The position numbers and the translations under genes are program-made. A stretch of DNA of 64,000 nt from an uncultured Gemmatimonadaceae bacterium. GTDB taxonomy: Bacteria > Gemmatimonadota > Gemmatimonadetes > Gemmatimonadales > Gemmatimonadaceae. The notes below the pieces were generated by a model. That model saw only the letters and a program-made list of their open reading frames with translations. It was not told the DNA's origin and made no database searches. The stretch spans positions 1,472,001 to 1,536,000 of the forward strand of contig CAWFQK010000004.1 in the NCBI GenBank assembly GCA_963817955.1, read 5' to 3'. Shown here one piece after another: positions 1 through 16,828 of the stretch (its first letter is position 1; the number at the start of each line of letters is the position of its first letter).

Positions 1-218
1 TCAGAGTGCACGCCGACGTCGGCGGCCTCCCGTTGGGCCGCGTGACAGACCAGGCAATTATTGCCCGCGTTCGCCTCGGGCGTCTGCCAAACCGTAGTCG
101 GTGCCGGGACCGCCGCCGCTGTGTGCATGGCCTGAGGCGCGGCTTGTGCCGGCACGAGGCTCGCGGCAAGCACGAGAGCGGTAGCGCCAAGGAGGCGAGT
201 GATCGTGGCGCGCATCAT
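1..218 (-). CDS. Periplasmic c-type cytochrome, N-terminal part only (runs off window start)
   Basis: Manual minus-strand translation: MMRATITRLLGATALVLAASLVPAQAAPQA...NNCLVCHAAQREAADVGVHS. Signal peptide, CxxCH, ATGA overlap with the cytochrome b stop. Not in the ORF track because it is truncated. Confidence 0.8.
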   Translation of the reverse strand, partial: MMRATITRLLGATALVLAASLVPAQAAPQAMHTAAAVPAPTTVWQTPEANAGNNCLVCHAAQREAADVGVHS

Positions 219-1450
219 CGTGACGTTGGAGCGGCAACGACCGTGTCGACGGGCGCCGCCGGCGTATATACCGGAGTGAGCTCGCTGGCAGTGGAGACGG
301 AGCGCAGATGCCACCCCGCGGCCCACGCCAACGCGAAGCCGAAGAAGAACGCGAAACCAAAACCCGCAACGAGCGGATGGCGTCGCAGTTGCCGGTCAGG
401 AGCACGATCGAACACGGGAAGAACCACGAGCGCGACACCCAGCAGTACGAACACGCCGAAGCCCCATGCGCCGAGATAATGAAGCAGCGCGCGTGAGACG
501 TCGGCAACGAACCACGTGGCATGCAACGCCGTGGGCGGATGGGCCGGGTCGGCCGGAGGAGCGATTTCGCGCGGCCACAGCACGGCAGCCGTGACTACGA
601 CGGCGACGACGAGCACGCCCACGCTCATGGAGCGCAAGAGGTGGTGCGGGAAGAATGGCACGCCCTCGCGATCACGATCTGCCGCTGGTGTCACGCCATC
701 GCGCACCACAGGCGCGAGGCCGTGCTTGCGCAGCAGCGTGAAGTGCAGCATCAGGAGCCCGAGCGCGGCCCACGGCAGCAGAATCACGTGGATCGCGAAG
801 AACCGGCTCAGCGTAGCGCCCGAAACCAGCGGATCGCCGCGAAGCAGTTCGGCCAGCCAGCCACCAATGAGCGGCACGCGACTGATGACATCCACACCCT
901 GCGTGGTGGTCCAGTACGCCCACTGGTCCCACGGCAGCAGATAACCGGTGGCGCCAAATCCCAATATGACGAGTAGCAGCAGCAGTCCGACGAGCCAGTT
1001 CGTCTCGCGCGGTGGCTTGTACGCGCGGCCGAAGAACACGCGCGCCATGTGCGCCAGCACGGCCACGACGATCAGGTTCGCACTCCACCGATGCAGATCG
1101 CGCATCAGCCATCCGAACGAAATGCCGGAGACGATGTGCTGAATGCTCTGGTACGCCTCTTCGGCCGATGGCCGGTAGTAGAACGAGAGGAGCACCCCCG
1201 TGGCGACGAGAATGATGAACAGCAGGTACGTGACTCCGCCGAACGCCTGGCGCCAGCCGACGTGGCGCGGAACCCGGTTGGCCAAGGCTTTACGAAATGC
1301 CTCGCCAATTGGTAGTTGGGTGTCGATGGGGCCATAGAGCAGGCCCACGAAGCGCAGCAGCCCGAGCAGGCTTGCATCGGTGCTCGCCTTGATGTCGGGC
1401 CAAAGACGCTGAGTCCAAATCCGAGCGATGCCGCTTTCGGAGTCTGCCAT
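215..1450 (-). CDS. Cytochrome b of Rieske/cytochrome b (bc/b6f-type) family, unsplit, with degenerate Qo motif
   Basis: Heme-ligand His pairs RDLHRWSANLIVVAVLAHMARV and FFAIHVILLPWAALGLLMLH; GYLLPWDQWAYW motif; PEWY position reads ATWF. Confidence 0.93.
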   Translation of the reverse strand: MADSESGIARIWTQRLWPDIKASTDASLLGLLRFVGLLYGPIDTQLPIGEAFRKALANRVPRHVGWRQAFGGVTYLLFIILVATGVLLSFYYRPSAEEAYQSIQHIVSGISFGWLMRDLHRWSANLIVVAVLAHMARVFFGRAYKPPRETNWLVGLLLLLVILGFGATGYLLPWDQWAYWTTTQGVDVISRVPLIGGWLAELLRGDPLVSGATLSRFFAIHVILLPWAALGLLMLHFTLLRKHGLAPVVRDGVTPAADRDREGVPFFPHHLLRSMSVGVLVVAVVVTAAVLWPREIAPPADPAHPPTALHATWFVADVSRALLHYLGAWGFGVFVLLGVALVVLPVFDRAPDRQLRRHPLVAGFGFAFFFGFALAWAAGWHLRSVSTASELTPVYTPAAPVDTVVAAPTSR

Positions 1451-1451
1451 G

Positions 1452-1922
1452 TCAGGGCCTCCCTACGTAGACGGCGCCATCGCGCACGAACGTGGAGTAA
1501 CGCTTCAGCGGCACCGTCGTGAGCCCGCGTACCACGTTGCCGTGCAGATCGTAGACGAGGTAGCCGCAGGCGGAGGCTACGCGCATCGACGTGGCATCCC
1601 AGTGCAAGATGCAGCCGTCGTTCGGCGCCGTGCCCTGGAGCGCCGTGTAGGTGGTCGAGTCCGCGCGAACCACAAGAATCACCTGGTCCCCCCAGCGAAC
1701 AATGCGGCTGCTTCCTACGGGCAGGCTCGTCTCAGGTGCCACGCGGAACGCGGGCTGGAGTTCGGGGAGCTGGAGCTGTTCGGGCGGCAGCAGGTAGACG
1801 AAGACGGCGAGGAGCGCGCCCATCAACATGAGTGAGAGAACTCCGCCGAGCAGGTATTCACCAAAGCCCGGCGTCCATGTCCGGGACGCAGGGATCGGCT
1901 CGGTTGTGTCAGGCATCACCAC
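1452..1922 (-). CDS. Membrane-anchored Rieske-fold protein lacking [2Fe-2S] ligands
   Basis: N-terminal TM helix; ALQGTAPNDGCILHW and ASACGYLVYDLHGNVVRG..PLKRY align to Rieske boxes I and II; GGAGG RBS; directly upstream of cytochrome b. Confidence 0.85.
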   Translation of the reverse strand: MVMPDTTEPIPASRTWTPGFGEYLLGGVLSLMLMGALLAVFVYLLPPEQLQLPELQPAFRVAPETSLPVGSSRIVRWGDQVILVVRADSTTYTALQGTAPNDGCILHWDATSMRVASACGYLVYDLHGNVVRGLTTVPLKRYSTFVRDGAVYVGRP

Positions 1923-2167
1923 TGGTCAGCCTCCGTTCTCGCTGATGTGCAACTGCGCTGCTTCCGCATAGCCAATCGTGCGATCGCTGGTGGTAGGTCG
2001 CTTGCGCGACGACATGACCAACCCGGCGACTGCTGTAACTCAGCGGTTTCCGGCCGCGTAGTCTGTCAGCGAAAACCAGAATCGCTGTCGGGAGTTAGCG
2101 TGCGGGTGGGAAGGCATGCTCCTACGTCATGCGCGAGAGCACATCCAACGGAAGATCATCGTGAGCG

Positions 2168-3751
2168 TTACTTCGAGAGCGGATCGGTGATGTGGCAGGT
2201 CAGGCACATGATCTTGTTACGGGCTGACATCCGACTCGCGTCGAAATTCTGTCCGTGCGGGTTCACCTTCAACCCGGTGCTTGCATGACAGCGCAGGCAA
2301 TCACGCTGCTGGTGACAGGTGGTGCAGCCGGTCATTCCTTGCCGCGCTGCTTGACCATGCTGTAGGAGCCAGAGCGGCTGCCCGGTGTGCACGGCACCTG
2401 TACGTGCTCCGCTCACGGTAATATTCGTCTTTTCATGGCACGAACGACAGAACGTCTCGGTGCGATGACAGGACGTACAGTTCTGGTCTTGCCCATACGC
2501 CACCGCCGCGTGCCGAGCAACGAAGTCGAGCGCATGATAGCGCTTGGAACCAGACCCCTCGTGACAGGTGGTACATTGGCGCTGCTCGTGACATCCCAGA
2601 CAGTCTAGCCGGCCGCTCGCTGCCGTCGACTTGTGCTGCGTCGCGAATCCCGCGGGATGCACTTTCGAGCCGGACCCCTCGTGACACGTCGCACATTGGC
2701 GCTGCTCGTGACATCCCAGGCAATCGACACGACCGCTCGCTGCCACCGACTTGTGCTGCATCGCGAATCCCAGAGGATGCGCCTTCACCAAAATCGTATC
2801 CCCGTGCGTCGCGCCGCGCGCGGGTAACCGAGCAAACGTCAGTCCGGTGTCAACACGCGCGACTCGCAACACGACACCCGGCGCCACTCCCGGCGCCGGC
2901 ATCGGAAGCCGTGCGATGACTGCGGCCGCGTTTGACCCTCTGTGACAGGACTGACAGCTCGGCTGCGTGTGGCAGTTGGCACAGCCCTCCGCTTGCTTTG
3001 ACGCAATGGTTCCGTGGTCGGCAGACCATGTCTCGCTCCGATGATTCACCGGGGTTGAATACGAGGCAGCTTTCCCCTTCATCAACTGAGCCACCCGCGA
3101 GTCGCTTCCCAACGCGCCGATCGCGGGAACGCGCGCCGCGTTCGGATGGCAGCGCGCGCAGCTCTCGCGAGCATGACACGTGGCGCAGCGCTCGACATCC
3201 GCGCTGGTTCGCGGCGCGTGCGCTGAGGCAAAATCCGCGCGTCCGTGCGATGTGGGTTTCGGGAAGGTCGCGATCGCGCTCGCGGGCAATGCGCGCGCCT
3301 CTGTTAGCGGGACATGGCACGTCTTGCATATCGCACTCTCTGCAAGATGTTCCGGTGCCTCATGGCAAGAGAGGCATACAGTGGGCGCTGCGCGCCGCAC
3401 CTGCATCCAACCCGCCTGCTTGTTTTCGGCATGACAACTCTGACACACTGCCGACGTTCCCTTCGCCTGGGGGTCCCGCGGATGCTCAACGTGTGCAAAC
3501 CGCAGGTTCGTCGGCTGCGGGGTGGCGCCCGACCATGTCGTGACCGCCACATCCCGGCCGTTATGGCACTGGGCGCACGTACTAGGCGCGGGCATCGCCG
3601 TGGTCGCGTCACCCGAGAGAATGCCCGCGTGGCACCCCGCGCAGTCCGGAAAGAGCTTCGCATGTTGCGCGTGCGGAAATCCCGATGACCGCTGCGCGTG
3701 CAAGGCCCCTGTCGACAGAAGCGCGATACCCAGCCAAGCGCCGATTCTCAT
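2168..3751 (-). CDS. Periplasmic multiheme cytochrome c (18 CxxCH motifs)
   Basis: Signal peptide; 18 CxxCH counted, many as closely spaced pairs preceded by His-containing linkers. Confidence 0.95.
   Translation of the reverse strand: MRIGAWLGIALLSTGALHAQRSSGFPHAQHAKLFPDCAGCHAGILSGDATTAMPAPSTCAQCHNGRDVAVTTWSGATPQPTNLRFAHVEHPRDPQAKGTSAVCQSCHAENKQAGWMQVRRAAPTVCLSCHEAPEHLAESAICKTCHVPLTEARALPASAIATFPKPTSHGRADFASAHAPRTSADVERCATCHARESCARCHPNAARVPAIGALGSDSRVAQLMKGKAASYSTPVNHRSETWSADHGTIASKQAEGCANCHTQPSCQSCHRGSNAAAVIARLPMPAPGVAPGVVLRVARVDTGLTFARLPARGATHGDTILVKAHPLGFAMQHKSVAASGRVDCLGCHEQRQCATCHEGSGSKVHPAGFATQHKSTAASGRLDCLGCHEQRQCTTCHEGSGSKRYHALDFVARHAAVAYGQDQNCTSCHRTETFCRSCHEKTNITVSGARTGAVHTGQPLWLLQHGQAARQGMTGCTTCHQQRDCLRCHASTGLKVNPHGQNFDASRMSARNKIMCLTCHITDPLSK
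2543..2780. repeat. 120-bp intragenic tandem duplication (40-aa diheme module x2)
   Basis: HPLGFAMQHKSVAASGRVDCLGCHEQRQCATCHEGSGSK vs HPAGFATQHKSTAASGRLDCLGCHEQRQCTTCHEGSGSK; DNA period exactly 120. Confidence 0.95.
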
Positions 3752-5214
3752 TGGATCCTCAATGCGCCGGGGCTACCAAGCGTCCACTCGAGCCGCACCG
3801 TGCCGCGCCGTTGATTCCAATTCACTAACTGTGGCGCGTCGCTGCCTGTGTGATGATACAGCAGCATATCGGCTACGAGGCGCAAATCGGGGAACAGGCG
3901 CACCGCAGCCTCTCCGCCTCCACCGACCACCCGGCCCGAACCGATCTGGAATTCATAGATGTTCTGAAAGGCCAATCCGTGGAGTGCGAGCGACAGGCCA
4001 TCGCTTGGCGCCCAACGCAGCGCAACGTCTTCATCGCTGGTCGACGCGCCGAAATCGATATCGGCGTTGTAGCTCCCCTGGACCGACCATGCGTTGGACG
4101 CCCGGAAGGAGCCGGTTGCGCCAACGCGCCAGCCGCTCGCGCGGAGCGGCAGGAACGCGACGCCACTCTGCGTGTCATCGTACGACCGTCGCCCGCCCGA
4201 TGCACCCAGGCTCACGCGAGCATCGCTGCTCGCCCAATCCAGGTTGCCGGAGACTTCTTTGTAGCCCACGGGAGCAAATGCGCCCCAGATCGTCCAGAGA
4301 TCGAAGTAGGGCGCGTAATGGCGTGCCTCGATCCGCGCCGTCGCCGATCGCGGCAGCACGAAGCGGAGCGCCAGAGAGAGATCGTTGAAGGTGCCGGTCG
4401 CCAGGTCGCGCGTGAGCTCGCCCGACAACGTGCTCTTCCCGGCATGCAGTTCGCCATCGGCGGCGACCCGCTCGGAATAGAGTCCGGCGCGATCTCGACG
4501 GATCTCGCGTTGGTACTGCACGCGGAACGCGCCGAGTGCATTGGGACGAAGCTGCGCCGTTGCCCCGATCACGTACGCACCATCGGTCGGCGGAAGATCT
4601 TCGACTGGCGCGAGCACACTAGCGTCGAGCGGTCGATTGAGCCCAGACACGAGGGTGCCACCACCATACACTTCGGCAGATACGCTACTCATCGGCCGCA
4701 GGAGCACCGATCCACCATCGAAGTTGAAGACGCCGAGCGACGAGGTGATCCACTGGCGGCCAAGCCTCGCACGCGCTCGGGAGCGGTCCATCTCGATGTA
4801 GGCATCGAGCGCATCGAACGTCTGCGTCGCTTGTGGCCACAGGTCGCGCGCATCGCCCGCTGCTCCGCGCGCCCGCAGTTGCGCGTGCACGCTGATTCCC
4901 TCACCGAAGCCCCAGCCCGTGACGTCAAGATCCTGGGTCATGGCGACGAGGGCGTTCCTGGACGCTGACCGAAGGAACGTGCAGTACTGGTTCAGCGCAT
5001 CGCATCGCGCGAGTATGCCGGACGTCGTGCGGCGATATACGCCGTACGCCGAATCCGTCGATGCATAGGCAATGCTATCGAGCACGAGCGGCTGCAGCTC
5101 GATGTATTGAGCCGAGCTGGCCCCCCTGATGACGACGCCCTGCGCCGCCGCCCTGCTCGCCGTCACGGCAACGAGGGCGGCCGTGAGGGCGATTCCTGCA
5201 ATATGGCGCCTCAT
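3748..5214 (-). CDS. Putative outer-membrane beta-barrel (porin partner of the multiheme cytochrome)
   Basis: Signal peptide; alternating amphipathic strands (RARLGRQW, FRVQYQREI, GTVRLEWTLG near C-terminus); ATGA overlap with the cytochrome gene. Confidence 0.75.
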   Translation of the reverse strand: MRRHIAGIALTAALVAVTASRAAAQGVVIRGASSAQYIELQPLVLDSIAYASTDSAYGVYRRTTSGILARCDALNQYCTFLRSASRNALVAMTQDLDVTGWGFGEGISVHAQLRARGAAGDARDLWPQATQTFDALDAYIEMDRSRARARLGRQWITSSLGVFNFDGGSVLLRPMSSVSAEVYGGGTLVSGLNRPLDASVLAPVEDLPPTDGAYVIGATAQLRPNALGAFRVQYQREIRRDRAGLYSERVAADGELHAGKSTLSGELTRDLATGTFNDLSLALRFVLPRSATARIEARHYAPYFDLWTIWGAFAPVGYKEVSGNLDWASSDARVSLGASGGRRSYDDTQSGVAFLPLRASGWRVGATGSFRASNAWSVQGSYNADIDFGASTSDEDVALRWAPSDGLSLALHGLAFQNIYEFQIGSGRVVGGGGEAAVRLFPDLRLVADMLLYHHTGSDAPQLVNWNQRRGTVRLEWTLGSPGALRIQ

Positions 5215-6600: not shown

Positions 6601-6867
6601 GGCGGACCTCAGTGTCGGAAATGGAGAACCAAACGACACACCCAGTATCCCGTCTCGGAGAGTCAATCACAATCGCCGGAACGCCACGTTCCACGTCAGG
6701 CAACGCCTCACGGCAGTGTCCGAAAACATGCCTTCGCAAATCAGTCTTATGCGTCTACTGGGCGGTGCCCATCGCAACAATTGTACACGGCACGCGTGAA
6801 CGCCGTAGCCAGCCTCGCACACCCTTTAGGTGGTGCGGCAATCCACGCCCAGTCAGGAGTCCGTTCC

Positions 6868-8058
6868 GTGCTTACTCCGCATCCGGTCGCGTGGTCGGAC
6901 GACGAGTCGCTCGCAACGCACCTCGAACATCGCGGCATCACTCGACGCGATTTCCTCGAGTTCTGCGGGCAGATGGCCGCCGTCCTGGGTCTCTCGACCA
7001 TCGCTGTGCCGCGCATCGCCGAGGCGATGGAGACCCTTCGCCGTCCCAGTGTGATCTGGCTGCAGTTGCAGGAGTGTACTGGATGTGTCGAAAGCGTGCT
7101 CCGGACGTCGGATCCGACGATCGGCGATCTCGTGCTCGACGTCATCTCGCTCGACTATCAGCATACGCTCATGGCCGCTGCGGGCACGGCGGCGGAGAAA
7201 GCGCTGACCGCCGCGCGAACGGCGAACGCCGGGAAGTATCTGCTCGTCGTCACGGGCTCGGTGCCGACGAATGCCAACGGAATGTATACGATGATCGGCG
7301 GGCAGACCGCGCGCTCGATTCTCGAAGCGACGGCCAAGGACGCCGCGGCGGTGATCGCTCTCGGCGCGTGCGCACACTGGGGCAGCGTGCAAGCGTCCAA
7401 GCCGAACCCCACGGGAGCCGTCGGCGTGTCGGAGATCGTCCGCGACAAACCGGTCGTCAACATTGCCGGCTGCCCGCCGATTGCCGATGTCGTGACCGCA
7501 ACGATCGTGCACTATCTCACATTCAATCGGCTGCCGGCGCTCGACTTCGACGGGCGGCCACGGTTCGCCTATCAGAACCGCATTCACGACCAGTGCTCCA
7601 AACGGGCGCACTACGACGCGGGCCAGTTCGTGCAAGCGTTCGATGACGAGGGCGCGCGTAAGGGCTACTGCCTCTACGAAGTCGGGTGCAAAGGTCCAGC
7701 GACTTTCTCGCCCTGCCCGATCTTCATGTGGAACTCGCGCACGAGTTGGCCGATTGGGGCGGGACATCCATGCATCGGCTGTACGGAACGGAACTTCTGG
7801 GACACCATGACACCGTTCTACAACCGACTGCCGAACATTGCGGGCATCGGCGTGGAACACACGGCCGACATCGTTGGCGTTTCGCTCGCGGCCGGCGCGC
7901 TGGCGGGCGTCGCCGCGCACGCCGCGGCCACGGGCATCTACCAGATCCAGACACGCCGCAAGCAGGTCACGCACGAAATCCCGAGTGCTGCCGCGCCGAA
8001 CGGCGCGTACGTGTCGCCCGAGGAATCCAAACAGCCGGCGCACCGGGGAGAGGAATGA
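6868..8058 (+). CDS. hyaA: [NiFe]-hydrogenase small subunit (group 1, Tat-exported, C-terminal membrane anchor)
   Basis: TRRDFLEFC Tat motif; ECTGCVES, GCPP, HDQC..CLYEVGCKGP, GHPCIGC; AGGAG RBS before GTG 6868. Confidence 0.95.
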   Translation: MLTPHPVAWSDDESLATHLEHRGITRRDFLEFCGQMAAVLGLSTIAVPRIAEAMETLRRPSVIWLQLQECTGCVESVLRTSDPTIGDLVLDVISLDYQHTLMAAAGTAAEKALTAARTANAGKYLLVVTGSVPTNANGMYTMIGGQTARSILEATAKDAAAVIALGACAHWGSVQASKPNPTGAVGVSEIVRDKPVVNIAGCPPIADVVTATIVHYLTFNRLPALDFDGRPRFAYQNRIHDQCSKRAHYDAGQFVQAFDDEGARKGYCLYEVGCKGPATFSPCPIFMWNSRTSWPIGAGHPCIGCTERNFWDTMTPFYNRLPNIAGIGVEHTADIVGVSLAAGALAGVAAHAAATGIYQIQTRRKQVTHEIPSAAAPNGAYVSPEESKQPAHRGEE

Positions 8059-8060
8059 CC

Positions 8061-9773
8061 ATGGCCAAGACAAGAATTGTGGTCGATCCCATCACGCGCA
8101 TCGAAGGCCACCTGCGCATCGAAGCGCAGACCGAGGCTGGCAAGATCACCAGCGCCTGGGCATCGGCAACGCAGTTCCGCGGGATCGAGATGATTCTGCA
8201 GGGCCGCGATCCACGTGACGCTTGGGCGTTCGCGCAGCGCATTTGCGGCGTCTGCACCGTGGTCCACGCGGTCGCCTCATGTCGCGCCGTCGAGGACGCG
8301 CTGGATATTCGCATCCCGGCGAACGCCAACACGATTCGCAATCTCGTTCTCGGAATGCAGTTCGTGCAGGACCACGTCATTCACTTCTATCACCTGCACG
8401 CACTCGACTGGGTGGACGTCGTGAGCGCGCTCTCGGCCAACCCCACGAAGGCGGCACAGATTGCCGCGTCGCTATCACCCTGGCCGAACAACTCGGCTAC
8501 GCACTTCAAAGAAGTGCAGGACCGCGTAAAGAAATTCGTCGGCTCTGGTCAACTCGGCATCTTCACGAACGGCTATTGGGGCCATCCGGCGTATAAGCTC
8601 CCGCCCGAAGTCAACCTCATCGCGGTCACGCACTATCTGGAAGCACTCGACTGGCAGCGCGACATCATTCGGCTCCACGCCATCTTCGGCGGCAAGAACC
8701 CGCACCCCAATTTTCTCGTTGGCGGCATGGCCTCGGCCATCAATCTCGATGAAGACGCGACGATCAACAGCGCGCGTCTCGCAGACGTGCAGGGGATGAT
8801 CACGCGGGCGCAACGGTTCGTTGAGCAGGTGTATTGGCCGGACCTCGTCGCGATTGCGGGCTACTACAAGGACTGGGCAGCGATCGGCGGCGGCGTCGGG
8901 AATTATCTCGCCGTCGGCGAGTTCCCCGAAACCGACATTCGCGACCTCAACTCGCTGTACTTCCCGCGCGGTGTGATCATGAACAAGGATCTCACCAAGG
9001 TCCATCCGTACGATCACACTGGCGTCTCCGAGTTCATCCACAGCTCGTGGTACGACTATGGGAAGGGCGACGTGGGCCTGCACCCGTACGAGGGCGAGAC
9101 GAACCCGAAGTACACCGGGCCCGACGCGCCCTGGACGTATCTGCAGGATTCCACGAAGTACTCGTGGATGAAGGCCCCGCGCTACAACGGCCACCCGATG
9201 GAAGTCGGACCACTGGCCCGTGTGCTGGTCGCCTACGCCTCGGGACACAAGGAAGTCCAAGCGATGGCGAATGACACGTTGAAAGCGCTCAATGCGCCCC
9301 CGACTGCGCTCTTCTCCACGCTCGGCCGCACGGCCGCACGCGGTATTGAGACGGTGCTCATCGCGCGCCGGCTCAGCACCTGGTACGATACGCTCGTCAA
9401 CCGCATCAAGGCCGGCGACGTGGCGACGTTCGCGCCGGCGAAGTTCGATCCTTCGACCTGGCCGGCCAAGTCGCGCGGCTACGGCGCACTCGACGCGCCC
9501 CGTGGGGCCCTCGGCCACTGGGTCGAGATCGAAAATCACAAGATCACACGGTACCAGTGCGTGGTGCCGACGACGTGGAACGCCTCGCCCCGCGACGCGC
9601 AGGGGCAGGTTGGACCGTACGAAGCGGCGCTCACGGACAACCACCCGCTGGCAATCCCCGATCAGCCGATCGAGATTCTGCGCACGATTCACTCGTTCGA
9701 TCCCTGCATCGCCTGCGGCGTGCACGTGCTCGACGCCACGGGCAAGGAGATCGGGGAGGTCACGGTGCAATGA
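8061..9773 (+). CDS. hyaB: [NiFe]-hydrogenase large subunit (group 1)
   Basis: DPITRIEGH; L1 QRICGVCTVVH; L2 SFDPCIACGVH plus cleavable C-terminal tail. Alternative start at 8055. Confidence 0.97.
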   Translation: MAKTRIVVDPITRIEGHLRIEAQTEAGKITSAWASATQFRGIEMILQGRDPRDAWAFAQRICGVCTVVHAVASCRAVEDALDIRIPANANTIRNLVLGMQFVQDHVIHFYHLHALDWVDVVSALSANPTKAAQIAASLSPWPNNSATHFKEVQDRVKKFVGSGQLGIFTNGYWGHPAYKLPPEVNLIAVTHYLEALDWQRDIIRLHAIFGGKNPHPNFLVGGMASAINLDEDATINSARLADVQGMITRAQRFVEQVYWPDLVAIAGYYKDWAAIGGGVGNYLAVGEFPETDIRDLNSLYFPRGVIMNKDLTKVHPYDHTGVSEFIHSSWYDYGKGDVGLHPYEGETNPKYTGPDAPWTYLQDSTKYSWMKAPRYNGHPMEVGPLARVLVAYASGHKEVQAMANDTLKALNAPPTALFSTLGRTAARGIETVLIARRLSTWYDTLVNRIKAGDVATFAPAKFDPSTWPAKSRGYGALDAPRGALGHWVEIENHKITRYQCVVPTTWNASPRDAQGQVGPYEAALTDNHPLAIPDQPIEILRTIHSFDPCIACGVHVLDATGKEIGEVTVQ

Positions 9774-10549
9774 GCACCCTCACTCCGCAGGATCTCGATC
9801 GCGAGCCACATTGGAAATCGCCTGATGACCGGCGGATGTCCACGACGTTCGAGGAGGCCATTCCCCAGGGCCTGTCCGAACACCGCTGGGTCTACCTGTG
9901 GCACTGGCCGCTTCGCGCCATGCACTGGATTGCCGCTGCCTCGATCGTTGTCCTCATCCTGACCGGCTTCTACATCGGCCGGCCGTACTTCATGTCCACC
10001 ACCGCCCAGTCGTCATTCACACTGCAGTGGGTACGCCTGGTGCACTTCATCGCTGCCGGTGTGTTGATTGCCACCGCGATCGTACGCACGTATTGGTTGT
10101 TTGCCGGCAACCGGTTCGAGCGGCTGCCGGCGCTCTTTCCGGTGCGGCCGCGCGACTGGCGCAATCTCGTACGGATGGTGCAGTACTACCTGCTCATCCA
10201 TCCAAAGCGCGCGCCGCGCTACCTCGGACACAACCCGCTGCAGCAGACGTTCTACACCTTCACGTACTTTGTGGCGGCACTGATGGTCCTGACCGGATTC
10301 ATTCTCATTGGACAGGCGAATCCCGGCGGCGTACTGATGCATACGTTTGGTCGCCTCGCTCCGGTGCTCGGCGGCATGCAGATGGTCCGCGTCATCCATC
10401 ATGTGGCCACGTGGTACTTCCCGATTTTCATCATCTTCCATGTCTATCTGGCCATTCGTGCAGACCTGCTGGAGCGCAGCGGAACGATGTCGTCTATGGT
10501 GAGCGGCGGGCGCTTCGTGCCCGTCGAGGAGCAGTATGCAGATGGTTGA
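9770..10549 (+). CDS. hyaC: Ni/Fe-hydrogenase b-type cytochrome subunit
   Basis: RAMHW, RLVHF, LGHNPLQ, IHH...FHVY; ATGA overlap with the large subunit. Confidence 0.93.
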   Translation: MSTLTPQDLDREPHWKSPDDRRMSTTFEEAIPQGLSEHRWVYLWHWPLRAMHWIAAASIVVLILTGFYIGRPYFMSTTAQSSFTLQWVRLVHFIAAGVLIATAIVRTYWLFAGNRFERLPALFPVRPRDWRNLVRMVQYYLLIHPKRAPRYLGHNPLQQTFYTFTYFVAALMVLTGFILIGQANPGGVLMHTFGRLAPVLGGMQMVRVIHHVATWYFPIFIIFHVYLAIRADLLERSGTMSSMVSGGRFVPVEEQYADG

Positions 10550-11054
10550 AGAACTGGTATCGGGCCTCGACGTCGTCATGGGCGTCGGGAACCCGCTCAT
10601 GGGCGACGACGGGCTCGGGATTGCCGCCGTCGCCGCGTTGCGTACGCGGTGGATGGATTCGACAAAGTTGGTCATCGTGGATGGCGGTACGTGGGGAATG
10701 AATCTGCTCCCCCTCATCGAGGGGGCGCGCCGGCTCATGATCATCGACGCGATCGATCGCGGCCTCCCGCCCGGCGCGCGGATCGAGCTCGAACGTGAGG
10801 AGATCCCGCGGTATCTCGGTCTCAAGCTGTCACCGCATCAGCTCGACCTGCGCGAAGTTCTGGCGCTCGCCGAGTTGCGCGGCACGCTGCCTGAGGAGAC
10901 GATCGCCATCGGCGTGCAGCCGGATCGCGTGGAATTGTCGCTCGAGCTCTCGCCCGTCGTTGCGGCGAAACTGCCCGGGCTCCTGAGCGACATCGAGGAG
11001 CAGCTCGTACGCTGGGGACACCGGCCTGTGGACACGCGCGTGATTCATGCATGA
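10542..11054 (+). CDS. hyaD: Hydrogenase maturation endopeptidase
   Basis: GVGNPLMGDDGLG, DGGT, IIDAI, SPHQ motifs. Confidence 0.92.
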   Translation: MVEELVSGLDVVMGVGNPLMGDDGLGIAAVAALRTRWMDSTKLVIVDGGTWGMNLLPLIEGARRLMIIDAIDRGLPPGARIELEREEIPRYLGLKLSPHQLDLREVLALAELRGTLPEETIAIGVQPDRVELSLELSPVVAAKLPGLLSDIEEQLVRWGHRPVDTRVIHA

Positions 11055-11307
11055 GATGGGTGTCGCGATGGAGATCTGCCGCATTGCCGAAGCACGCGTC
11101 GGCACCGAATCCGCGGCGTTCGTCACGCGGTTGGCGGTAACGATAGGCGACGAGGCGGGCGTCGAGCCGTCAAGCCTCGAGTTCTGTCTCGACGCGCTTC
11201 TGGCACAGCCGCCGTTCGGCGGCGCCACGGCGCAGATCATCTCAACGACGGGTGACACTCTTCGTTTGGACTACTTGGAGATCGACGATGACCGTGAGAG
11301 TGATTGA
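11047..11307 (+). CDS. hypA: HypA/HybF nickel metallochaperone, lacking the Zn-finger insert
   Basis: N-terminal MHE; IGDEAGVEPSSLEFC; C-terminal GDTLRLDYLEID; no CxxC motifs; 86 aa. Confidence 0.85.
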   Translation: MHEMGVAMEICRIAEARVGTESAAFVTRLAVTIGDEAGVEPSSLEFCLDALLAQPPFGGATAQIISTTGDTLRLDYLEIDDDRESD

Positions 11308-11977
11308 CATTCGCGAGCGCGTCATGGAGCAGAACGACCGGATCGCCGCGCTCGTCCGGCAACGTCTCGACGATTCGGGCGTTCCGGCGCTCAACCTCAT
11401 GTCGTCACCCGGTGCCGGCAAGACGTCGTTGCTCGAACGCACGCTCGCCGATCAGGGATCGCTGCTTCGCATCGCGACCGTCGTGGGAGACGTGCAGACT
11501 CAGAATGACGCCGACCGTCTCGCACGGCACACCGATCGCCTGGTGCAAGCTGTGGTCACGGGCGGGGCCTGCCATCTCGACGCGCGTCAGGTGATGGCGG
11601 CGCTCGATGCCATCGACCTGTACGACGTCGACCTGCTGTTCATCGAGAACGTCGGCAATCTCGTCTGCCCGGCGAGCTGGCAGCTGGGCGAAAGCGCGAA
11701 CGTCGTACTCTTTGCCGTCACCGAGGGCGAAGACAAGCCGCTCAAGTATCCGAAGATGTTTCAGAAGTCGCACTACGCGCTCATCACAAAGACCGACTTG
11801 CTGCCGTACCTCGACTTCGACGTCGATCGTGCGATCGGGTACCTACGTGACGTCAACCCAAATATCGATGTCATCCTGACCTCATCGCGCACAGGCGAGG
11901 GGCTCCACGATTGGTACACGCTGCTCCACCGGCATGTTCACGGCGCACGCCATGTGGAACCCGAAGTAGTCGCGTGA
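11288..11977 (+). CDS. hypB: Hydrogenase nickel incorporation GTPase HypB
   Basis: SSPGAGKT, GACHLDA, ENVGNLVCPA, EGEDKPLKYP, TKTD. Confidence 0.96.
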   Translation: MTVRVIDIRERVMEQNDRIAALVRQRLDDSGVPALNLMSSPGAGKTSLLERTLADQGSLLRIATVVGDVQTQNDADRLARHTDRLVQAVVTGGACHLDARQVMAALDAIDLYDVDLLFIENVGNLVCPASWQLGESANVVLFAVTEGEDKPLKYPKMFQKSHYALITKTDLLPYLDFDVDRAIGYLRDVNPNIDVILTSSRTGEGLHDWYTLLHRHVHGARHVEPEVVA

Positions 11978-14322
11978 TCGCATCTGCGAACCATTCTCGC
12001 TATCGCGTGCATGTCACGGGCGTCGTGCAGGGTGTCGGCTTCAGGCCCTTCGTCCACCGTCTGGCGAATCGGCACGGGTTGGCGGGATGGGTCCGTAACG
12101 AATCAGGCAACGTTGAGATCGTCGTCGCTGGTGCGCCGACCGATGTAAGTGCCTTTCTGGCCGACTTGGCCGGGGAAGCGCCGCCGCTTGCCCGAATCGA
12201 TCGTATCGACACGGAACCGGCTCCGTCGGCCACTGGGCCCGTCACCGGAGACGGTGAAGCCGACGACGTTGCGTTCAGAATTCTGGCAAGCGTATCGGTT
12301 GAAGGACGACGGCAGCCCGTGCCCGCCGATGTTGCTCTCTGTGCGGCGTGCGAGCGCGAACTCTTCGACCCCAGGGACCGCCGCGTCCGGTATCCGTTCA
12401 TCACCTGCACCGATTGTGGCCCGCGCTTCACGCTCATCGAGGCGTTGCCTTACGACCGCGAGCGCACCGCGATGCGCCGCTTCACACAGTGCCCCGCGTG
12501 CCAGGCCGAGTATCTCGCGCCGCACGACCGCCGGTATCACAGCGAAACGAACAGCTGTCCCGTCTGTGGTCCGCTGCTCTGGGCGCGTCTTCCCGGCGCG
12601 CCGACCACGCGACCGGCGGCGGATGACCCATGTATCCGCTCGTCGCTCAGCCTCGCTGCCGCGACGCTGCGCGGCGGCGGCATTGTCGCCATTCGCGGTG
12701 TCGGCGGTTTTCATCTCGCGGTGGACGCCACGAACGACGGCGCCGTACGACGCTTGCGCGAGCGCAAACATCGGGAAGCGAAACCGCTCGCCGTCATGGT
12801 TCGCACCATCGAGGAGGCCGCTGCGATCGCTCGGATCGGTGCAGGCGAGGCCGACCTCCTGACGAGCCCGGAACGTCCGGTGGTGCTCCTGCCGTGCCGC
12901 CGTGATGCGATGATCGCCCCCTCGGTTGCGCCCGGACTCGCGACGATCGGCGTCATGCTCGCCTATACCCCGCTGCACCATCTACTGATTGCCGGCATAG
13001 AGCGGCCGCTGGTGATGACGAGCGGTAATCGCAGCGAAGAACCAATTGCCGCGTCGATCACCGACGCGGCAGCTCGACTCGACGATATTGCCGACCTGTT
13101 TCTGCTGCACGATCGCGAGATCGAATCGCCGATGGACGACAGTGTCGTACGCGTGCAGGGCGACCGCACGATGATGATCCGCCGCGCCCGCGGTTATGCG
13201 CCGCTTCCAATCAAGTTGCCAGCCTCGACACCGCTGCCCATCCTCGCCGTTGGCGGCCATCTCAAGAACACATTCACGCTGGCGGTTGGCGACGAAGCAT
13301 TCGTCAGCCCGCATCTTGGCGATCTCGACGGGCTCGAGACGCTCGATCATTTTCGGACCACACTCGATCGGTACTCCCGCCTCTTTCGCGTCATTCCGAA
13401 AGTGGTCGTGCGCGATCTTCATTCCGGATACTTGAGCTCCCGGATTGCCGATGACTTGGACGCCGAGCATCGTATCCTGGTGCAGCATCATCATGCGCAC
13501 ATCGCAGCCGTCCTCGGCGAACACAAACACGACGGCCGGGTCATTGGCGTGGCATTCGATGGCACGGGCGCCGGGGACGATGGTACAGTGTGGGGCGCCG
13601 AGTTCTTGTCGGCGACGCAAGCACACTTCTCGCGCGTCGCGCACCTGCGATGTGCGCCGCTTCCCGGCGGCGACCTCGCGGTTCGTTCACCCTGGCGATC
13701 GGCACTTGGCTACCTCTCCCTTGAACCGAGCCTGGCAGCGTCATTCGCCTGCGCCTTCCATGGAGTCGACGAACGTGAACGTCGGGCAGCCGAGCACCAA
13801 CTCCGTCGACATCTCAATTGTCCGCTGGCGTCGTCCATGGGACGGTTGTTCGACGCGGCTGCGGCTATTCTCGGAGTATGCAGGTACGCGCGTTTCGAGG
13901 GTGACGCCGCCATGCAACTCGAAGCGCTCGCCGGATCATCGAATGAACGTCTACTGCCCTTCCCCATCACCCGGGATGCCGCTGGGGACTTGCAGCTCGA
14001 TCCCTTGCCCTTGCTCGACGCGCTCGCCTGCGGGCTTCGCCGCGGAGTCTCCCTGGCGTCGCTCGCCGCTGCATTTCACGAATCGGTGGCCGCCGCCACG
14101 GCAGCCCTCACCGCGGACCTTTGCGACCTGACCGGCGTCGCCGTCGTTGCTCTTGGTGGCGGCGTGTTCCAGAACGCGCGGCTGGGTGCGTCGCTACGCT
14201 CCCGCCTCGCAGACAAGGGCCTCACGGTCCTGATGCCCACGTTGCTGCCCGCCAACGATGGCGGGCTCAGTTACGGACAAGCAGTCACCGCGACGGCAAT
14301 CCTCCGCGAACGCGGCGAGTAG
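11974..14322 (+). CDS. hypF: Carbamoyltransferase HypF
   Basis: GVVQGVGFRPF acylphosphatase domain, two Zn fingers, QHHHAH, PANDGGLSYGQ. Confidence 0.96.
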   Translation: MIASANHSRYRVHVTGVVQGVGFRPFVHRLANRHGLAGWVRNESGNVEIVVAGAPTDVSAFLADLAGEAPPLARIDRIDTEPAPSATGPVTGDGEADDVAFRILASVSVEGRRQPVPADVALCAACERELFDPRDRRVRYPFITCTDCGPRFTLIEALPYDRERTAMRRFTQCPACQAEYLAPHDRRYHSETNSCPVCGPLLWARLPGAPTTRPAADDPCIRSSLSLAAATLRGGGIVAIRGVGGFHLAVDATNDGAVRRLRERKHREAKPLAVMVRTIEEAAAIARIGAGEADLLTSPERPVVLLPCRRDAMIAPSVAPGLATIGVMLAYTPLHHLLIAGIERPLVMTSGNRSEEPIAASITDAAARLDDIADLFLLHDREIESPMDDSVVRVQGDRTMMIRRARGYAPLPIKLPASTPLPILAVGGHLKNTFTLAVGDEAFVSPHLGDLDGLETLDHFRTTLDRYSRLFRVIPKVVVRDLHSGYLSSRIADDLDAEHRILVQHHHAHIAAVLGEHKHDGRVIGVAFDGTGAGDDGTVWGAEFLSATQAHFSRVAHLRCAPLPGGDLAVRSPWRSALGYLSLEPSLAASFACAFHGVDERERRAAEHQLRRHLNCPLASSMGRLFDAAAAILGVCRYARFEGDAAMQLEALAGSSNERLLPFPITRDAAGDLQLDPLPLLDALACGLRRGVSLASLAAAFHESVAAATAALTADLCDLTGVAVVALGGGVFQNARLGASLRSRLADKGLTVLMPTLLPANDGGLSYGQAVTATAILRERGE

Positions 14323-14349
14323 TCGCATCTACCGACCAGGAGGCGTCAC

Positions 14350-14643
14350 ATGTGTTTGGGCATTCCGGGTAGAATCGTCGAGATCCGGACGGATCGGGAC
14401 CTCCTCATGGGTACAGTCGATTTTGGCGGTGTCCGACGCGATGCGTGCCTTGCGTATGTCGCGGACGACATCCACGTCGGCGACTACGCCATCGTCCACG
14501 TGGGTTTCGCGATCGCGAAAGTCGACGAAGCCGAAGCGCAGCGCACCTTCGCCGTGCTGCGCGAGATGAGCCAGCTCGACGAGATGGAATGGGTGACCGA
14601 GGCAATCCCCGCCGACGCGCCCACGTCGGGGCCACCTTCATGA
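14350..14643 (+). CDS. hypC: Hydrogenase assembly chaperone HypC
   Basis: MCLGIPG...[13 protein letters not shown]. Confidence 0.96.
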
Positions 14644-15770
14644 AATACCTCACTGAGTATCGCGACGGAACCATCGGTCGCGCCATCGCGGAGCGCATTC
14701 GGCAAACGGCAACGCGGCGGTGGACCTTGATGGAGCTATGCGGGGGACAGACGCACACGATCGTGCGCCAGGGCATCGATGAGCTGCTCGACGGCGTCGT
14801 CGAAATGATTCATGGTCCGGGGTGTCCAGTGTGCGTGACGCCGCTGGAACAGATCGATCGGGCCGTCCACCTTGCGGCACAATCGGGCGTGATCTTCACG
14901 TCGTTCGGCGACATGCTGCGCGTGCCCGGAAGCGACCGCGACCTGCTCCAGGTGCGCGCCCGCGGCGGAACCGTGCGCATCGTGTACTCGCCGCTCGACG
15001 CCGTGACGCTGGCAATCAAGAACCCGGACAAGCAGGTGGTGTTCTTCGCCGTCGGGTTCGAGACGACGGCTCCCGCGAACGCCATGGCCGTCTGGCGCGC
15101 CGCGCAGCTTGGCGTGCGCAACTTTAGCATGCTCGTATCGCACGTCACGGTACCGCCGGCGATGTTGGCGATTATCGACGCCCCCGACAATCGCGTGCAG
15201 GGATTCCTTGCGGCGGGGCACGTGTGCACGGTCATGGGATGGGAAGAGTACGAGCCGATCGCGGCCAAGTACCACGTCCCGATCGTCGTCACGGGGTTCG
15301 AACCGATCGACTTGCTCGAGGGAATTTGGCTCGCGGTACGGCAGCTCGAAGGGAACCAGGCGTTCGTCGAGAATCAATACGTGCGCTCGGTGAAGCGTGA
15401 GGGCAACGCGGCAGCTCGCGATCTCGTGTCTACGGTCTTTCGGCTCGCCGACCGGAAGTGGCGCGGCATTGGAGAAATACCCGCAAGTGGACTGGCACTG
15501 CGCGACGAATACGCCGATTTCGACGCCGAGCGTCGCTTCGCACTTGATGACATCGTGACGAATGAACCGATGGAGTGCCGCGCCGGCGACGTGCTCCGCG
15601 GTCGAATCAAACCCTACGAATGTTCGATGTTCGGCACGGCGTGCACGCCCGAGCGCCCGATGGGCGCGCCGATGGTGTCGACCGAAGGCGCATGCGCGGC
15701 ATACTTCAACTACGGGCGCAGTCGCCCAGTCACGGCTGCGGGCGCGACGGCAGCAAAGGAGGGAGCATGA
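14640..15770 (+). CDS. hypD: Hydrogenase formation protein HypD
   Basis: [37 protein letters not shown]. Confidence 0.96.
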
Positions 15771-16828
15771 GCACCGCGACAACGTCGAACGGATTCACCT
15801 GTCCCGTGGGCGCGACGGCGCACGACTGTGTCGTACTCGGCCACGGGTCGGGGGGCAAGTTGAGTGCGGCCCTGCTCCAACACTACTTCCTTCCGCACTT
15901 CAAGAGTCCCGTGCTACGGCGCTTGGGCGATGGCGCTGTGGTGAACGCGGGGTCGGTCAATGTCGTGCTCTCCACTGACACGTTCGTCGTGAGTCCGCTC
16001 GAGTTTCCGGGAGGCAATATCGGATCGCTCGCAGTGAACGGCACCGTGAACGACCTGGCCATGATGGGTGCGCGACCGTACTACCTCACGGCTGGTTTCA
16101 TCATTGAGGAAGGATTGCCGCTCGAACAACTCGATCGCATCGTCCGGTCCATGGCGGACGCGGCGCGTATCGCGGGCGTCCAGATCGTGGCCGGCGATAC
16201 GAAAGTCGTGGAACGCGGCAAAGGCGATGGCTTGTTCATCAACACCACCGGTCTCGGCATGGCCGATTCGGAGTTTGCTCCGTCACCTGACGCAGTGAAG
16301 GCAGGCGACGTCGTACTCGTCTCCGGTCCAATCGGCGTGCACGGCATGACGATCCTGTCGACGCGTGAGGGACTGGAGTTCGAGGCCGATCTCGCGAGCG
16401 ACACGGTCTGCCTCTATCCGCTTGTGCAAGCGCTCAGCCGGGCGACCGGCGGCGCGGTGTCGGCTATGCGCGATCCAACCCGCGGGGGCGTGGCGAGCGC
16501 CATCAACGAGATCGCAGCCACCTCGCGCATTGGCGTGCTGCTCGACGAAGCGTCCATGCCCATTCCACCGGCCGTCGCCGGCGCCTGCGAAATGCTCGGC
16601 TTGGATCCTCTGTATGTGGCCAATGAGGGCAATTTCGTAGCGTTCGTGCCGCCGCAGCACGCCGATGCCGCACTCACCGCGTTGCGGAATCATCCCCTTG
16701 GGCGCCACGCGGCGCGGATCGGCACCGCGGTGAATGAGCACCCGGGTATCGTCGCCATGCGCACTGGGCTCGGAGGCACACGCATCGTCGATCTGCTGCC
16801 TGGAGACCAGCTTCCGCGAATCTGCTGA
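15767..16828 (+). CDS. hypE: Hydrogenase maturation protein HypE
   Basis: GHGSGG, RDPTRGG, C-terminal LPRIC. Confidence 0.96.

Follow-up and report, generated by a model that had tools for sequence, protein, structure and literature searches.

A Rieske-fold protein without cluster ligands, encoded ahead of a cytochrome b in Gemmatimonadota

The Rieske-Like Gene and Its Ligand-Less Boxes

The window analysed here is a stretch of 64,000 nucleotides from an uncultured Gemmatimonadaceae bacterium (assembly GCA_963817955.1, contig CAWFQK010000004.1, positions 1,472,001 to 1,536,000 of the forward strand). Close to its start, it harbours a gene on the reverse strand for a Rieske-like protein in which the two boxes expected to hold a [2Fe-2S] cluster contain none of the four cluster ligands. 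The locus raises the question of whether such a protein is the decaying remnant of an iron-sulfur subunit or is maintained, and in what role. The question bears on a central point of bioenergetics, as the Rieske cluster makes the Q cycle bifurcate, and the textbook mechanisms of the bc1 and b6f complexes rely on the cluster and on the movement of the head domain. The evidence presented below, from conservation across homologues, selection, phylogeny and gene order, argues for a maintained protein, and its features are most consistent with a structural subunit.

The intact reading frame and the good ribosome-binding site reported in a first-pass annotation of this DNA, made from the letters alone, were both found (Table 1). 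A GTG at 1919 and an ATG at 1916 are further possible starts, the latter being the start in the database copy of the protein (P0001). The reverse complement of positions 1611-1628 reads GCG CCG AAC GAC GGC TGC (APNDGC) and that of positions 1557-1574 reads TCC GCC TGC GGC TAC CTC (SACGYL), so that the DNA bears out the box remnants read earlier. Alignment to a solved Rieske iron-sulfur protein (ISP), 8hn2_A, places the two boxes in register with cTHlGC ... CpCHg, with A, N, S and G on the four ligand columns. It had also been claimed that exactly the four ligands were replaced while both disulfide cysteines were kept. This stands for the replacements themselves (C>A, H>N, C>S and H>G) and for the retention of the cysteines, but is too narrow, since further box residues are altered in the alignment to the solved ISP (T>P, L>D, P>A and G>Y) and so is the third cluster-covering loop, which is G-L-T-T in the window protein as against G-P-q-P or G-P-a-P in the aligned ISPs.

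A Pfam scan of the reading frame gave no PF00355 Rieske match at E ≤ 1 and only a chance-level match to CNH. Since the Pfam Rieske model gave no match, homology to Rieske proteins was drawn from NCBIfam models, PDB sequences and the fold. The NCBIfam PetC models matched weakly, with a best E value of 1.4e-6; they scored 27.8 and 27.4 bits where 154 and 250, respectively, are the cut-offs. In the PDB sequence search, all 12 matches at E ≤ 10 were b6f-type or Rieske ISPs, the best being 8hn2_A (E 7.6e-12), which is the soluble domain of the Rieske ISP from Chlorobaculum tepidum. An AlphaFold2 (AF2) model built from a family alignment of 44 sequences had a mean pLDDT of 89.1 and consisted of an N-terminal helix (Table 1) followed by a beta-rich head. 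Foldseek comparison of the model with the PDB returned 137 chains at E ≤ 0.001, those listed being Rieske-type domains. The top match was again 8hn2_A, with a target-normalised TM-score of 0.82 and a root-mean-square deviation of 1.2 Å over 96 columns; small subunits of arsenite oxidase, ISPs of the b6f type and Rieske ferredoxins ranked next. As modelled, the fold of the window protein is that of a Rieske domain from which the defining ligands are absent. The Rieske assignment of the first-pass annotation was thus upheld by the structure search, though the family models matched weakly or not at all.

Family-Wide Conservation of the Ligand Loss

At E ≤ 0.001, a search of a set of 5.8 billion proteins retrieved 154; counts out of 120 below refer to the 120 of them that were listed. 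The four ligand columns are free of Cys and His in every listed homologue, and both non-ligand cysteines are retained throughout (120/120). The former Cys-ligand columns are occupied by Ala or Ser (A80/S40 in box I and S119/A1 in box II). The former His columns are variable (T/N/S/L and others in the first, S/T/G/A/E/N in the second). The replacements as read in the window are correct for that copy; the Asn and Gly at the His positions are nevertheless peculiar to it and do not describe the family, whose columns vary. Within the boxes, an Asp (115/120) and a Tyr (105/120) are newly conserved. Judged from these alignment columns, the pattern of ligand loss is far above chance expectation.

The twin arginines of the twin-arginine translocation (Tat) motif are needed for the export of pre-folded, cofactor-loaded domains. 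The absence of this motif from the window protein, already pointed out in the first-pass annotation, was confirmed, with T-P at the arginine columns, and the loss proved to be family-wide. The strict motif [ST]RRx## occurs in 0/120 homologues, and 114 of the 120 have no RR at all ahead of the anchor. Among the canonical representatives described below, 78 of 111 carry RR within their first 45 residues. A comparison of the canonical RRxFL[DE]xLLGG with the family pattern xxxFx[DE]YLLGG indicated that the arginines alone were lost; F18 of the former motif (P0001 numbering) is invariant across the family.

Selection on the Rieske-Like Protein and the Adjoining Cytochrome b

Pairwise dN/dS ratios (omega) were estimated by the Nei-Gojobori method (NG86) on codon alignments of 60 Rieske-like genes and of 59 genes for the cytochrome b encoded directly downstream; 56 sequences shared by the two sets gave 1540 pairs. 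Rows with fewer than 125 (Rieske-like) or 300 (cytochrome b) aligned residues were left out. For the ten closest pairs (dS 0.16-0.48), omega was 0.12-0.22 for the Rieske-like gene versus 0.065-0.17 for cytochrome b. Over the 356 pairs with dS below 1 in both genes, the medians were 0.40 and 0.32, respectively, and the highest omega among 1539 finite pairs was 0.71. The rise of omega with distance is probably due to saturation of dS in a genome rich in G and C at third codon positions (GC3-rich).

The constraint is unevenly distributed along the Rieske-like protein. In nine taxon-disjoint close pairs, regional omega was 0.463 for the N-terminal tail, 0.186 for the transmembrane helix, 0.028 for the linker and 0.120 for the head (0.07-0.18 in individual pairs). 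By these estimates, the cofactor-less head is as constrained as cytochrome b, and the linker is the most constrained part of the protein. Q54 of the linker is invariant, and Q49, E52, L53, P55 and A56 are conserved in at least 90% of sequences (P0001 numbering). In canonical complexes the corresponding linker is a flexible hinge. The view that the protein is maintained and not decaying, advanced earlier on the window copy alone, is borne out by the recurrence of the same selective pattern in all 120 listed homologues and by the low ratios of the close pairs and of the head; the dN/dS of the orthologues is not near 1, nor do they show random degeneration.

Descent of the Ligand-Less Family

Searched with a profile, a set of 1.84 billion representatives yielded 583 matches at E ≤ 0.001, and 149 representatives from among them were aligned (P0266, of 1286 aa, was omitted). 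The canonical CxH...CxxH pattern is present in 111 of the 149. The 13 top-scoring 50%-identity representatives that span both boxes are all ligand-less, with both cysteines retained. A quick maximum-likelihood tree of 141 rows was computed on about 150 columns, comprising 132 of the 150 aligned rows (those with at least 90% head coverage and under 300 aa) and nine family members. All 21 ligand-less rows fell on one side of a single branch, which had an SH-aLRT support of 99, or 94 when the box columns were removed. This placement implies, as far as such a tree can indicate, a single change of state in the ligand-less clade. The tree is unrooted; since the canonical state surrounds the ligand-less clade, one ancestral loss of the ligands would most simply account for it. 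The nearest atlas cluster, with 248 members, is most frequent in Gemmatimonadota.

A second small Rieske-derived family was found in P0137 and P0274-P0283, comprising 11 proteins of about 147 aa. Their boxes read C-[PQ]-R-T-G-C and C-P-C-D-[YF]-S in 11/11, the four cysteines being retained and the His ligands replaced by Arg and Asp in all of them. RR is present in three of the ten full-length members, a motif in erosion. In the quick tree, P0137 was placed as sister of the ligand-less clade with an SH-aLRT of 81, and its family may represent an intermediate state. The N-terminus also differs among divergent ligand-less members. P0123 and P0125 carry a zinc-ribbon-like CxxC...CxxC extension before the anchor, and in P0126, P0128 and P0132 the N-terminal tail is nearly absent. 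Such a plastic cytoplasmic end of the family agrees with the high regional ratio (0.46) of the N-terminal tail.

The Partner Cytochrome b

The cytochrome b fuses a b6-like and a subunit IV-like half (Table 1), and its N-terminal half matched cytochrome b6 chains of the PDB with E values as low as 2.9e-54. The haem-ligand histidines H120, H134, H221 and H236 are present in all 59 family cytochromes b and do not vary in the cytochrome b alignment A2. The Cys of the b6f haem ci/cn (CxGG motif) was not found, its place being taken by Ala in the window and its column reading A52/S3/M2/L1/V1 (n = 59). The quinol oxidation (Qo) motif, PEWY in canonical proteins and ATWF in the window, is [STAV][TSN]W[VILFA] across the family: S44/T10/A4/V1 at the first position, T50/S8/N1 at the second, W in 59/59 at the third and V31/I22/L4/F1/A1 at the fourth. 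None of the 59 has an acidic residue in this motif. Kao and Hunte distinguished six major patterns (PEWY, PDWY, APWY, PDWF, PPWF as well as GPWF) along with PVWY (PMC4122944), and the motif of the window and of the family falls outside the types catalogued in the accessible part of that survey. The PWDQ of the cd-loop is retained, with WDQ in all the top variants listed. As read from these sequences, the changes in the partner protein, with PEWY replaced and the haem histidines kept, fit a loss of the Qo/FeS chemistry.

A Conserved Four-Gene Module

A locus scan with one genome per GTDB species yielded 63 loci, all from metagenome-assembled genomes (MAGs), of which 62 are titled Gemmatimonadota or one of its lower ranks. 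Cytochrome b lies directly downstream of the Rieske-like gene in 62/63 loci; in the exception, L043, the locus stops about 150 bases past the match. In the window, the ATG of a third gene overlaps the stop codon of cytochrome b. The reading frame of this third gene, cut by the window edge, matches the one that follows cytochrome b in L001, L004, L010, L011 and L062, and wherever more than 400 bases remain after cytochrome b, an ortholog of this cytochrome of about 420 aa is found there (55/55 loci). In L062, it has nine CxxCH motifs, a signal peptide and a C-terminal transmembrane helix. A second, larger multihaem cytochrome comes next in all 54 loci with room for it, with 14 CxxCH motifs in the 592-aa reading frame of L062 and a length of 670 aa in L004. 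This larger cytochrome carries a transmembrane helix at the N-terminus and has an NrfH/NapC-like start (TIGR03153, 5.8e-12, below the cut-off of that model). Gene junctions in the module are 1-nt gaps or overlaps. The conserved unit consists of four genes, namely those for the Rieske-like protein, cytochrome b and two multihaem cytochromes, because the remaining neighbours vary: cbb3 maturation genes accompany the module at 9 loci, and a B12/radical-SAM gene does so at 16.

One of the 63 loci is titled other than Gemmatimonadota. L033 (JAUMBX010000139.1, 7183 bases), from a 'Steroidobacteraceae' MAG, carries the full four-gene module with 53-58% identity on a short, low-coverage contig; mis-binning is a more likely explanation than gene transfer. 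The second multihaem cytochrome is a single 670-aa reading frame in L004 (8996-11008) and is divided into overlapping frames of 592 and 155 aa in L062 (8969-11009), probably because that MAG has a frameshift or was misassembled there.

Comparison with Known Systems

With PetC and other ISPs of the 8hn2 type, the window protein shares the fold (TM-score 0.82), sequence homology (7.6e-12), the succession of N-terminal anchor, linker and head, the position of its gene upstream of cytochrome b and the Cys pair. It differs from them in lacking the four ligands and the twin arginines, in its altered third loop, in a linker that is the most conserved region and not a flexible hinge, and in scores that lie far under the family cut-offs.

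In Geobacter, CbcBA is made up of the di-haem CbcB and the multihaem CbcA. CbcBA is named in the accessible part of PMC12133095 among the inner-membrane cytochromes required for extracellular respiration. Like Kao and Hunte's actinobacterial 'PDWF-FeS' branch (PMC4122944, as far as accessible), it resembles the window module in combining a bc-type cytochrome b without a Rieske cluster with a multihaem cytochrome c or another FeS partner. Neither has a Rieske-derived gene, whereas the window module keeps one before cytochrome b. ExtP, from the Geobacter ext operon for selenite/tellurite reduction, is the best NCBIfam match of the N-terminal half of cytochrome b (3.1e-66, 223 bits), and ExtQ weakly matches the C-terminal half. 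Both scores are under the equivalog cut-offs (223 versus 290 and 19 versus 150 bits), and the two halves are fused in the window cytochrome b. No other ext family came near its cut-off among the proteins scanned.

A ligand-less Rieske-like domain is also found in PSB33/TEF5 (LIL8) of the green lineage (PMC12164590, accessible part). By its description, this is a eukaryotic chloroplast protein with C-terminal transmembrane helices that faces the stroma and belongs with photosystem II, as distinct from the bacterial window protein with its N-terminal anchor and its cytochrome b operon. Within the same phylum, GAU_0696 (YP_002760208) of Gemmatimonas aurantiaca T-27 has the canonical PEWY according to the supplement of PMC4122944 and stands beside Planctomycetes sequences in the supplementary alignment of PMC5600118, a lineage separate from the cytochromes b with [ST][TS]W[IV]. 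It was the only Gemmatimonadetes cytochrome b found in the accessible parts of these two published surveys. The literature searched, which included the accessible parts of PMC3509893, PMC4122944, PMC5600118, PMC5317091 and PMC2700814, yielded no account of a bc-type operon in which a ligand-less Rieske gene is retained; within that literature, a ligand-less Rieske subunit in a cytochrome b operon is undescribed.

A conserved, cluster-free Rieske subunit beside a cytochrome b with two b haems amounts to a natural knock-out. It would reveal what the scaffold contributes beyond electron transfer, for instance in assembly, as a cap over the quinol pocket or as a docking site for c-type cytochromes, and how a bc-type cytochrome b may be re-wired to multihaem cytochromes. 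It also bears on the loss of Tat dependence after loss of the cofactor. In the source records, members of the family are labelled 'ubiquinol-cytochrome c reductase iron-sulfur subunit', 'nitrite reductase/ring-hydroxylating ferredoxin subunit' or 'hypothetical protein', the first two of which imply a cluster that the family sequences cannot bind canonically. Such names would make metabolic reconstructions of soil Gemmatimonadota presume a working complex III.

Proposed Role and Alternative Explanations

We put at roughly 60% the probability that the window protein is a cofactor-free, Sec-inserted structural subunit of a cytochrome b/multihaem-c complex that is unable to run the classical bifurcating Q cycle. 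A role as a structural or docking subunit is suggested by its adjacency to cytochrome b, the constraint on its linker and a weak complex prediction. The protein, itself free of cofactor, would descend from the Rieske iron-sulfur subunit of a complex of the b6f/bc type, having kept the membrane anchor at its N-terminus, the constrained linker and the periplasmic Rieske beta-domain, with the former cluster-binding loops tied by the conserved Cys pair as a presumed disulfide. Because the [2Fe-2S] ligands and the twin arginines are lost, insertion would proceed by Sec/YidC, and folding and oxidation of the cysteines would take place in the periplasm. The partners produced along with it would be cytochrome b, a 9-haem cytochrome c that is c1/f-like and anchored in the membrane, and the larger NrfH/NapC-anchored multihaem cytochrome c. 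The Rieske-like head would most likely be a fixed cap or docking piece on cytochrome b and not a mobile electron shuttle. Without the cluster there would be no classical bifurcated quinol oxidation, and electrons would pass between the quinone pool and the periplasm via the two b haems and/or straight to the c haems, of which the complex would contain about 23. Candidate routes are quinol oxidation at a rebuilt Qo pocket from which a c haem accepts the electrons, the NrfH-like module, and b haems that wire the periplasmic cytochromes to the Qi site. It is from these features that we infer a head free of metal, its physical binding to cytochrome b and any direction of the electron flow.

Complex prediction for cytochrome b (alignment A2) with the Rieske-like protein (alignment A1) was classed as 'weak support', with a median ipSAE of 0.33 (0.31, 0.33 and 0.47) against 0.01 for the best of three controls. 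The runs shared at least 78% of contacts, with a partner pLDDT of at least 77. The mark used was reached by 116/157 solved complexes and 2/215 mismatched pairs, and at an ipSAE of 0.60 or less by only 18 of the 157 solved complexes and by both of the passing mismatches; for this pair these benchmark counts are approximate owing to the custom alignments.

Several points weigh against this assignment. The pair is a textbook one and like complexes have been solved, so that the weak pass in the complex prediction may reflect that likeness. The conserved Asp and Tyr, together with the two cysteines, could build another metal site. The NG86 ratios are pairwise and climb with divergence (to the median of 0.40 over 356 pairs). 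Every carrier is a MAG and none is cultured, and the genomic context was viewed within 12-kb loci, so that a canonical Rieske/cytochrome b complex or an alternative complex III (ACIII) elsewhere in these genomes would lie outside the view. Lastly, some bc complexes function although their Qo motif lacks an acidic residue, as in the case of PVWY, where a Glu compensates (PMC4122944, accessible part). Since non-acidic Qo motifs occur in working complexes, the changed motif of the family is no proof of a dead site.

A more far-reaching form of the proposal is tentative, and we regard it as possible but clearly doubtful. Across an entire lineage within Gemmatimonadota, the Rieske head of a bc-type complex, once a mobile shuttle with a [2Fe-2S] cluster, would have become a fixed cap free of metal. 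At a rebuilt Qo site, the 9-haem subunit would provide a c haem as the new first acceptor, or else the Qo site would have been abolished and the b haems would form a transmembrane wire between some 23 periplasmic c haems and the Qi site. Proteins of the P0137 type would be a surviving intermediate.

Among the alternatives to a structural subunit, the one that fares best, although unlikely, is that the head is still catalytic at the quinol site without being an electron carrier. Docked over the Qo pocket, it would use the Asp of box I and the Tyr/Ser of box II in place of the cluster-ligand His for hydrogen bonding or proton acceptance, with electrons passing to haem bL and a nearby c haem. The newly conserved Asp and Tyr do lie precisely in the former cluster loops, where the His columns themselves are variable, the head is under constraint (omega 0.12), and the PWDQ of the cd-loop is retained in cytochrome b. 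The loss of the acidic Qo residue argues against an intact proton path, however, and the complex prediction gave no usable interface.

Improbable, and more so than a catalytic head, is a different cofactor, either a mononuclear metal or an unusual cluster held by the two cysteines, Asp and Ser/Tyr, which would leave the protein a redox subunit. In its favour, both cysteines are invariant and the neighbouring Asp and Ser nearly so, and the sister-like P0137 family keeps four cysteines, with only the His replaced, by Arg and Asp, in 11/11. Only two thiols and no His are left in the window family, though, with variable residues in the former His columns. The two non-ligand cysteines are disulfide-bonded in canonical bc-type Rieske proteins, and this too weighs against a metal bound there, as does the family-wide loss of the Tat motif.

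We give slightly less credence still to a transient assembly or stability factor for cytochrome b or the multihaem cytochromes, which would not be a stoichiometric subunit. There is a parallel in PSB33/TEF5, a ligand-less Rieske-like membrane protein that acts in photosystem II assembly/maintenance (PMC12164590, accessible part). The window family has, however, retained the ISP architecture of N-terminal anchor, linker and head; its gene holds the first position of an operon with tightly coupled junctions in 62/63 loci, and a permanent interface accords better with so extreme a constraint on the linker. A functionless pseudogene or relic in decay, which the loss of the four ligands and the Tat motif and the missing Pfam Rieske match might suggest, can hardly be entertained in view of the intact reading frame with its ribosome-binding site, the 154 family members at E ≤ 0.001, the retention of the gene in 63 species-level genomes, the omega of 0.12-0.22 in close pairs (0.12 in the head) and orthologues that show neither an omega near 1 nor scattered frameshifts.

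Other Features of the Window and Neighbourhood of the Module

Table 1. Features of the window (positions in the 64,000-nucleotide stretch)
Feature	Position	Strand	Remarks
Third gene of the module, 5' part; multihaem cytochrome c	1..218	-	Signal peptide; first CxxCH is CLVCH; cut by window edge; reading frame 3..326
Cytochrome b, 411 aa	215..1450	-	b6-like N-terminal half fused to subunit IV-like C-terminal half; starts 1 nt after stop of Rieske-like gene; PF00033, 4.7e-50
Position of the Qo motif of cytochrome b	509..520	-	ATWF for PEWY; from alignment of C-terminal half to b6f subunit IV chains
Gene for ligand-less Rieske-fold protein	1452..1922	-	156 aa from GTG 1922, 154 aa from ATG 1916; from list of open reading frames
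Box II remnant, SACGYL	1557..1574	-	Canonical CxCHxx; ligand Cys>Ser, ligand His>Gly; disulfide Cys retained
Box I remnant, APNDGC	1611..1628	-	Canonical CxHxGC; ligand Cys>Ala, ligand His>Asn; disulfide Cys retained
Linker, helix to head	1743..1784	-	Residues 47-60, PPEQLQLPELQPAF; lowest dN/dS of the protein, 0.028
N-terminal transmembrane helix (signal anchor)	1791..1865	-	Helix 18-42 of 154-aa model; block pLDDT 97-98
Codons T17-P18	1869..1874	-	Columns of the twin arginines in canonical relatives, from N-terminus alignment; remainder F-x-E-Y-L-L-G-G retained
Shine-Dalgarno sequence GGAGG	1930..1934	-	7 nt 5' of GTG 1922; direct sequence reading
Cytochrome c, 527 aa	2168-3751	-	18 CxxCH; directly upstream of Rieske-like gene, same strand
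488-aa protein	3748-5214	-	4-nt overlap with 18-haem cytochrome gene; signal-peptide-like start; no Pfam family
[NiFe] hydrogenase cluster	6781-16828	+	
Hydrogenase small subunit	6781-8058	+	RRDFLEF Tat motif
Hydrogenase large subunit	8103-9773	+	
HyaC-like cytochrome b reading frame	~9.8-10.5 kb	+	Followed by HycI, HypB, HypD and HypE

Upstream of the Rieske-like gene, the 18-haem cytochrome and the 488-aa protein (Table 1) look like a porin-cytochrome pair. The atlas look-alikes of the 488-aa protein are hypothetical clusters restricted to Gemmatimonadota, and the nearest named ones are outer-membrane beta-barrels, with a score of 0.92 that serves as a lead only. Both genes lie near the module in the window and in L051-L053, and the 488-aa reading frame is present alone in L049. 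Their inclusion in the module was rejected, as they are near the Rieske-like/cytochrome b pair only in L049 and L051-L053 and are on the opposite strand there.

Farther upstream lies the [NiFe] hydrogenase cluster. That the complex serves this adjacent hydrogenase was likewise rejected, since the hydrogenase has its own HyaC-like cytochrome b and adjoins the pair in only 2/63 other loci (L016 and L043). Assignment to the Rieske/cytochrome bc module of a clade II nos cluster was dropped, no NosZ-type domain being found in the 43 scanned reading frames of the window or in L062.

Genes for cbb3 oxidase maturation (FixG, P-type ATPase and FixS) were considered as a conserved link and rejected, being present in only 9/63 loci. 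In those nine (L004, L008, L011, L014, L015, L017, L041, L044 and L062), FixG, a DsbD_2-domain protein, the P-type ATPase and FixS are encoded upstream on the same strand, and a gene for a B12-binding radical-SAM protein follows the module. In this subgroup of nine loci, the cbb3 maturation neighbours may hint at micro-oxic use of the module.

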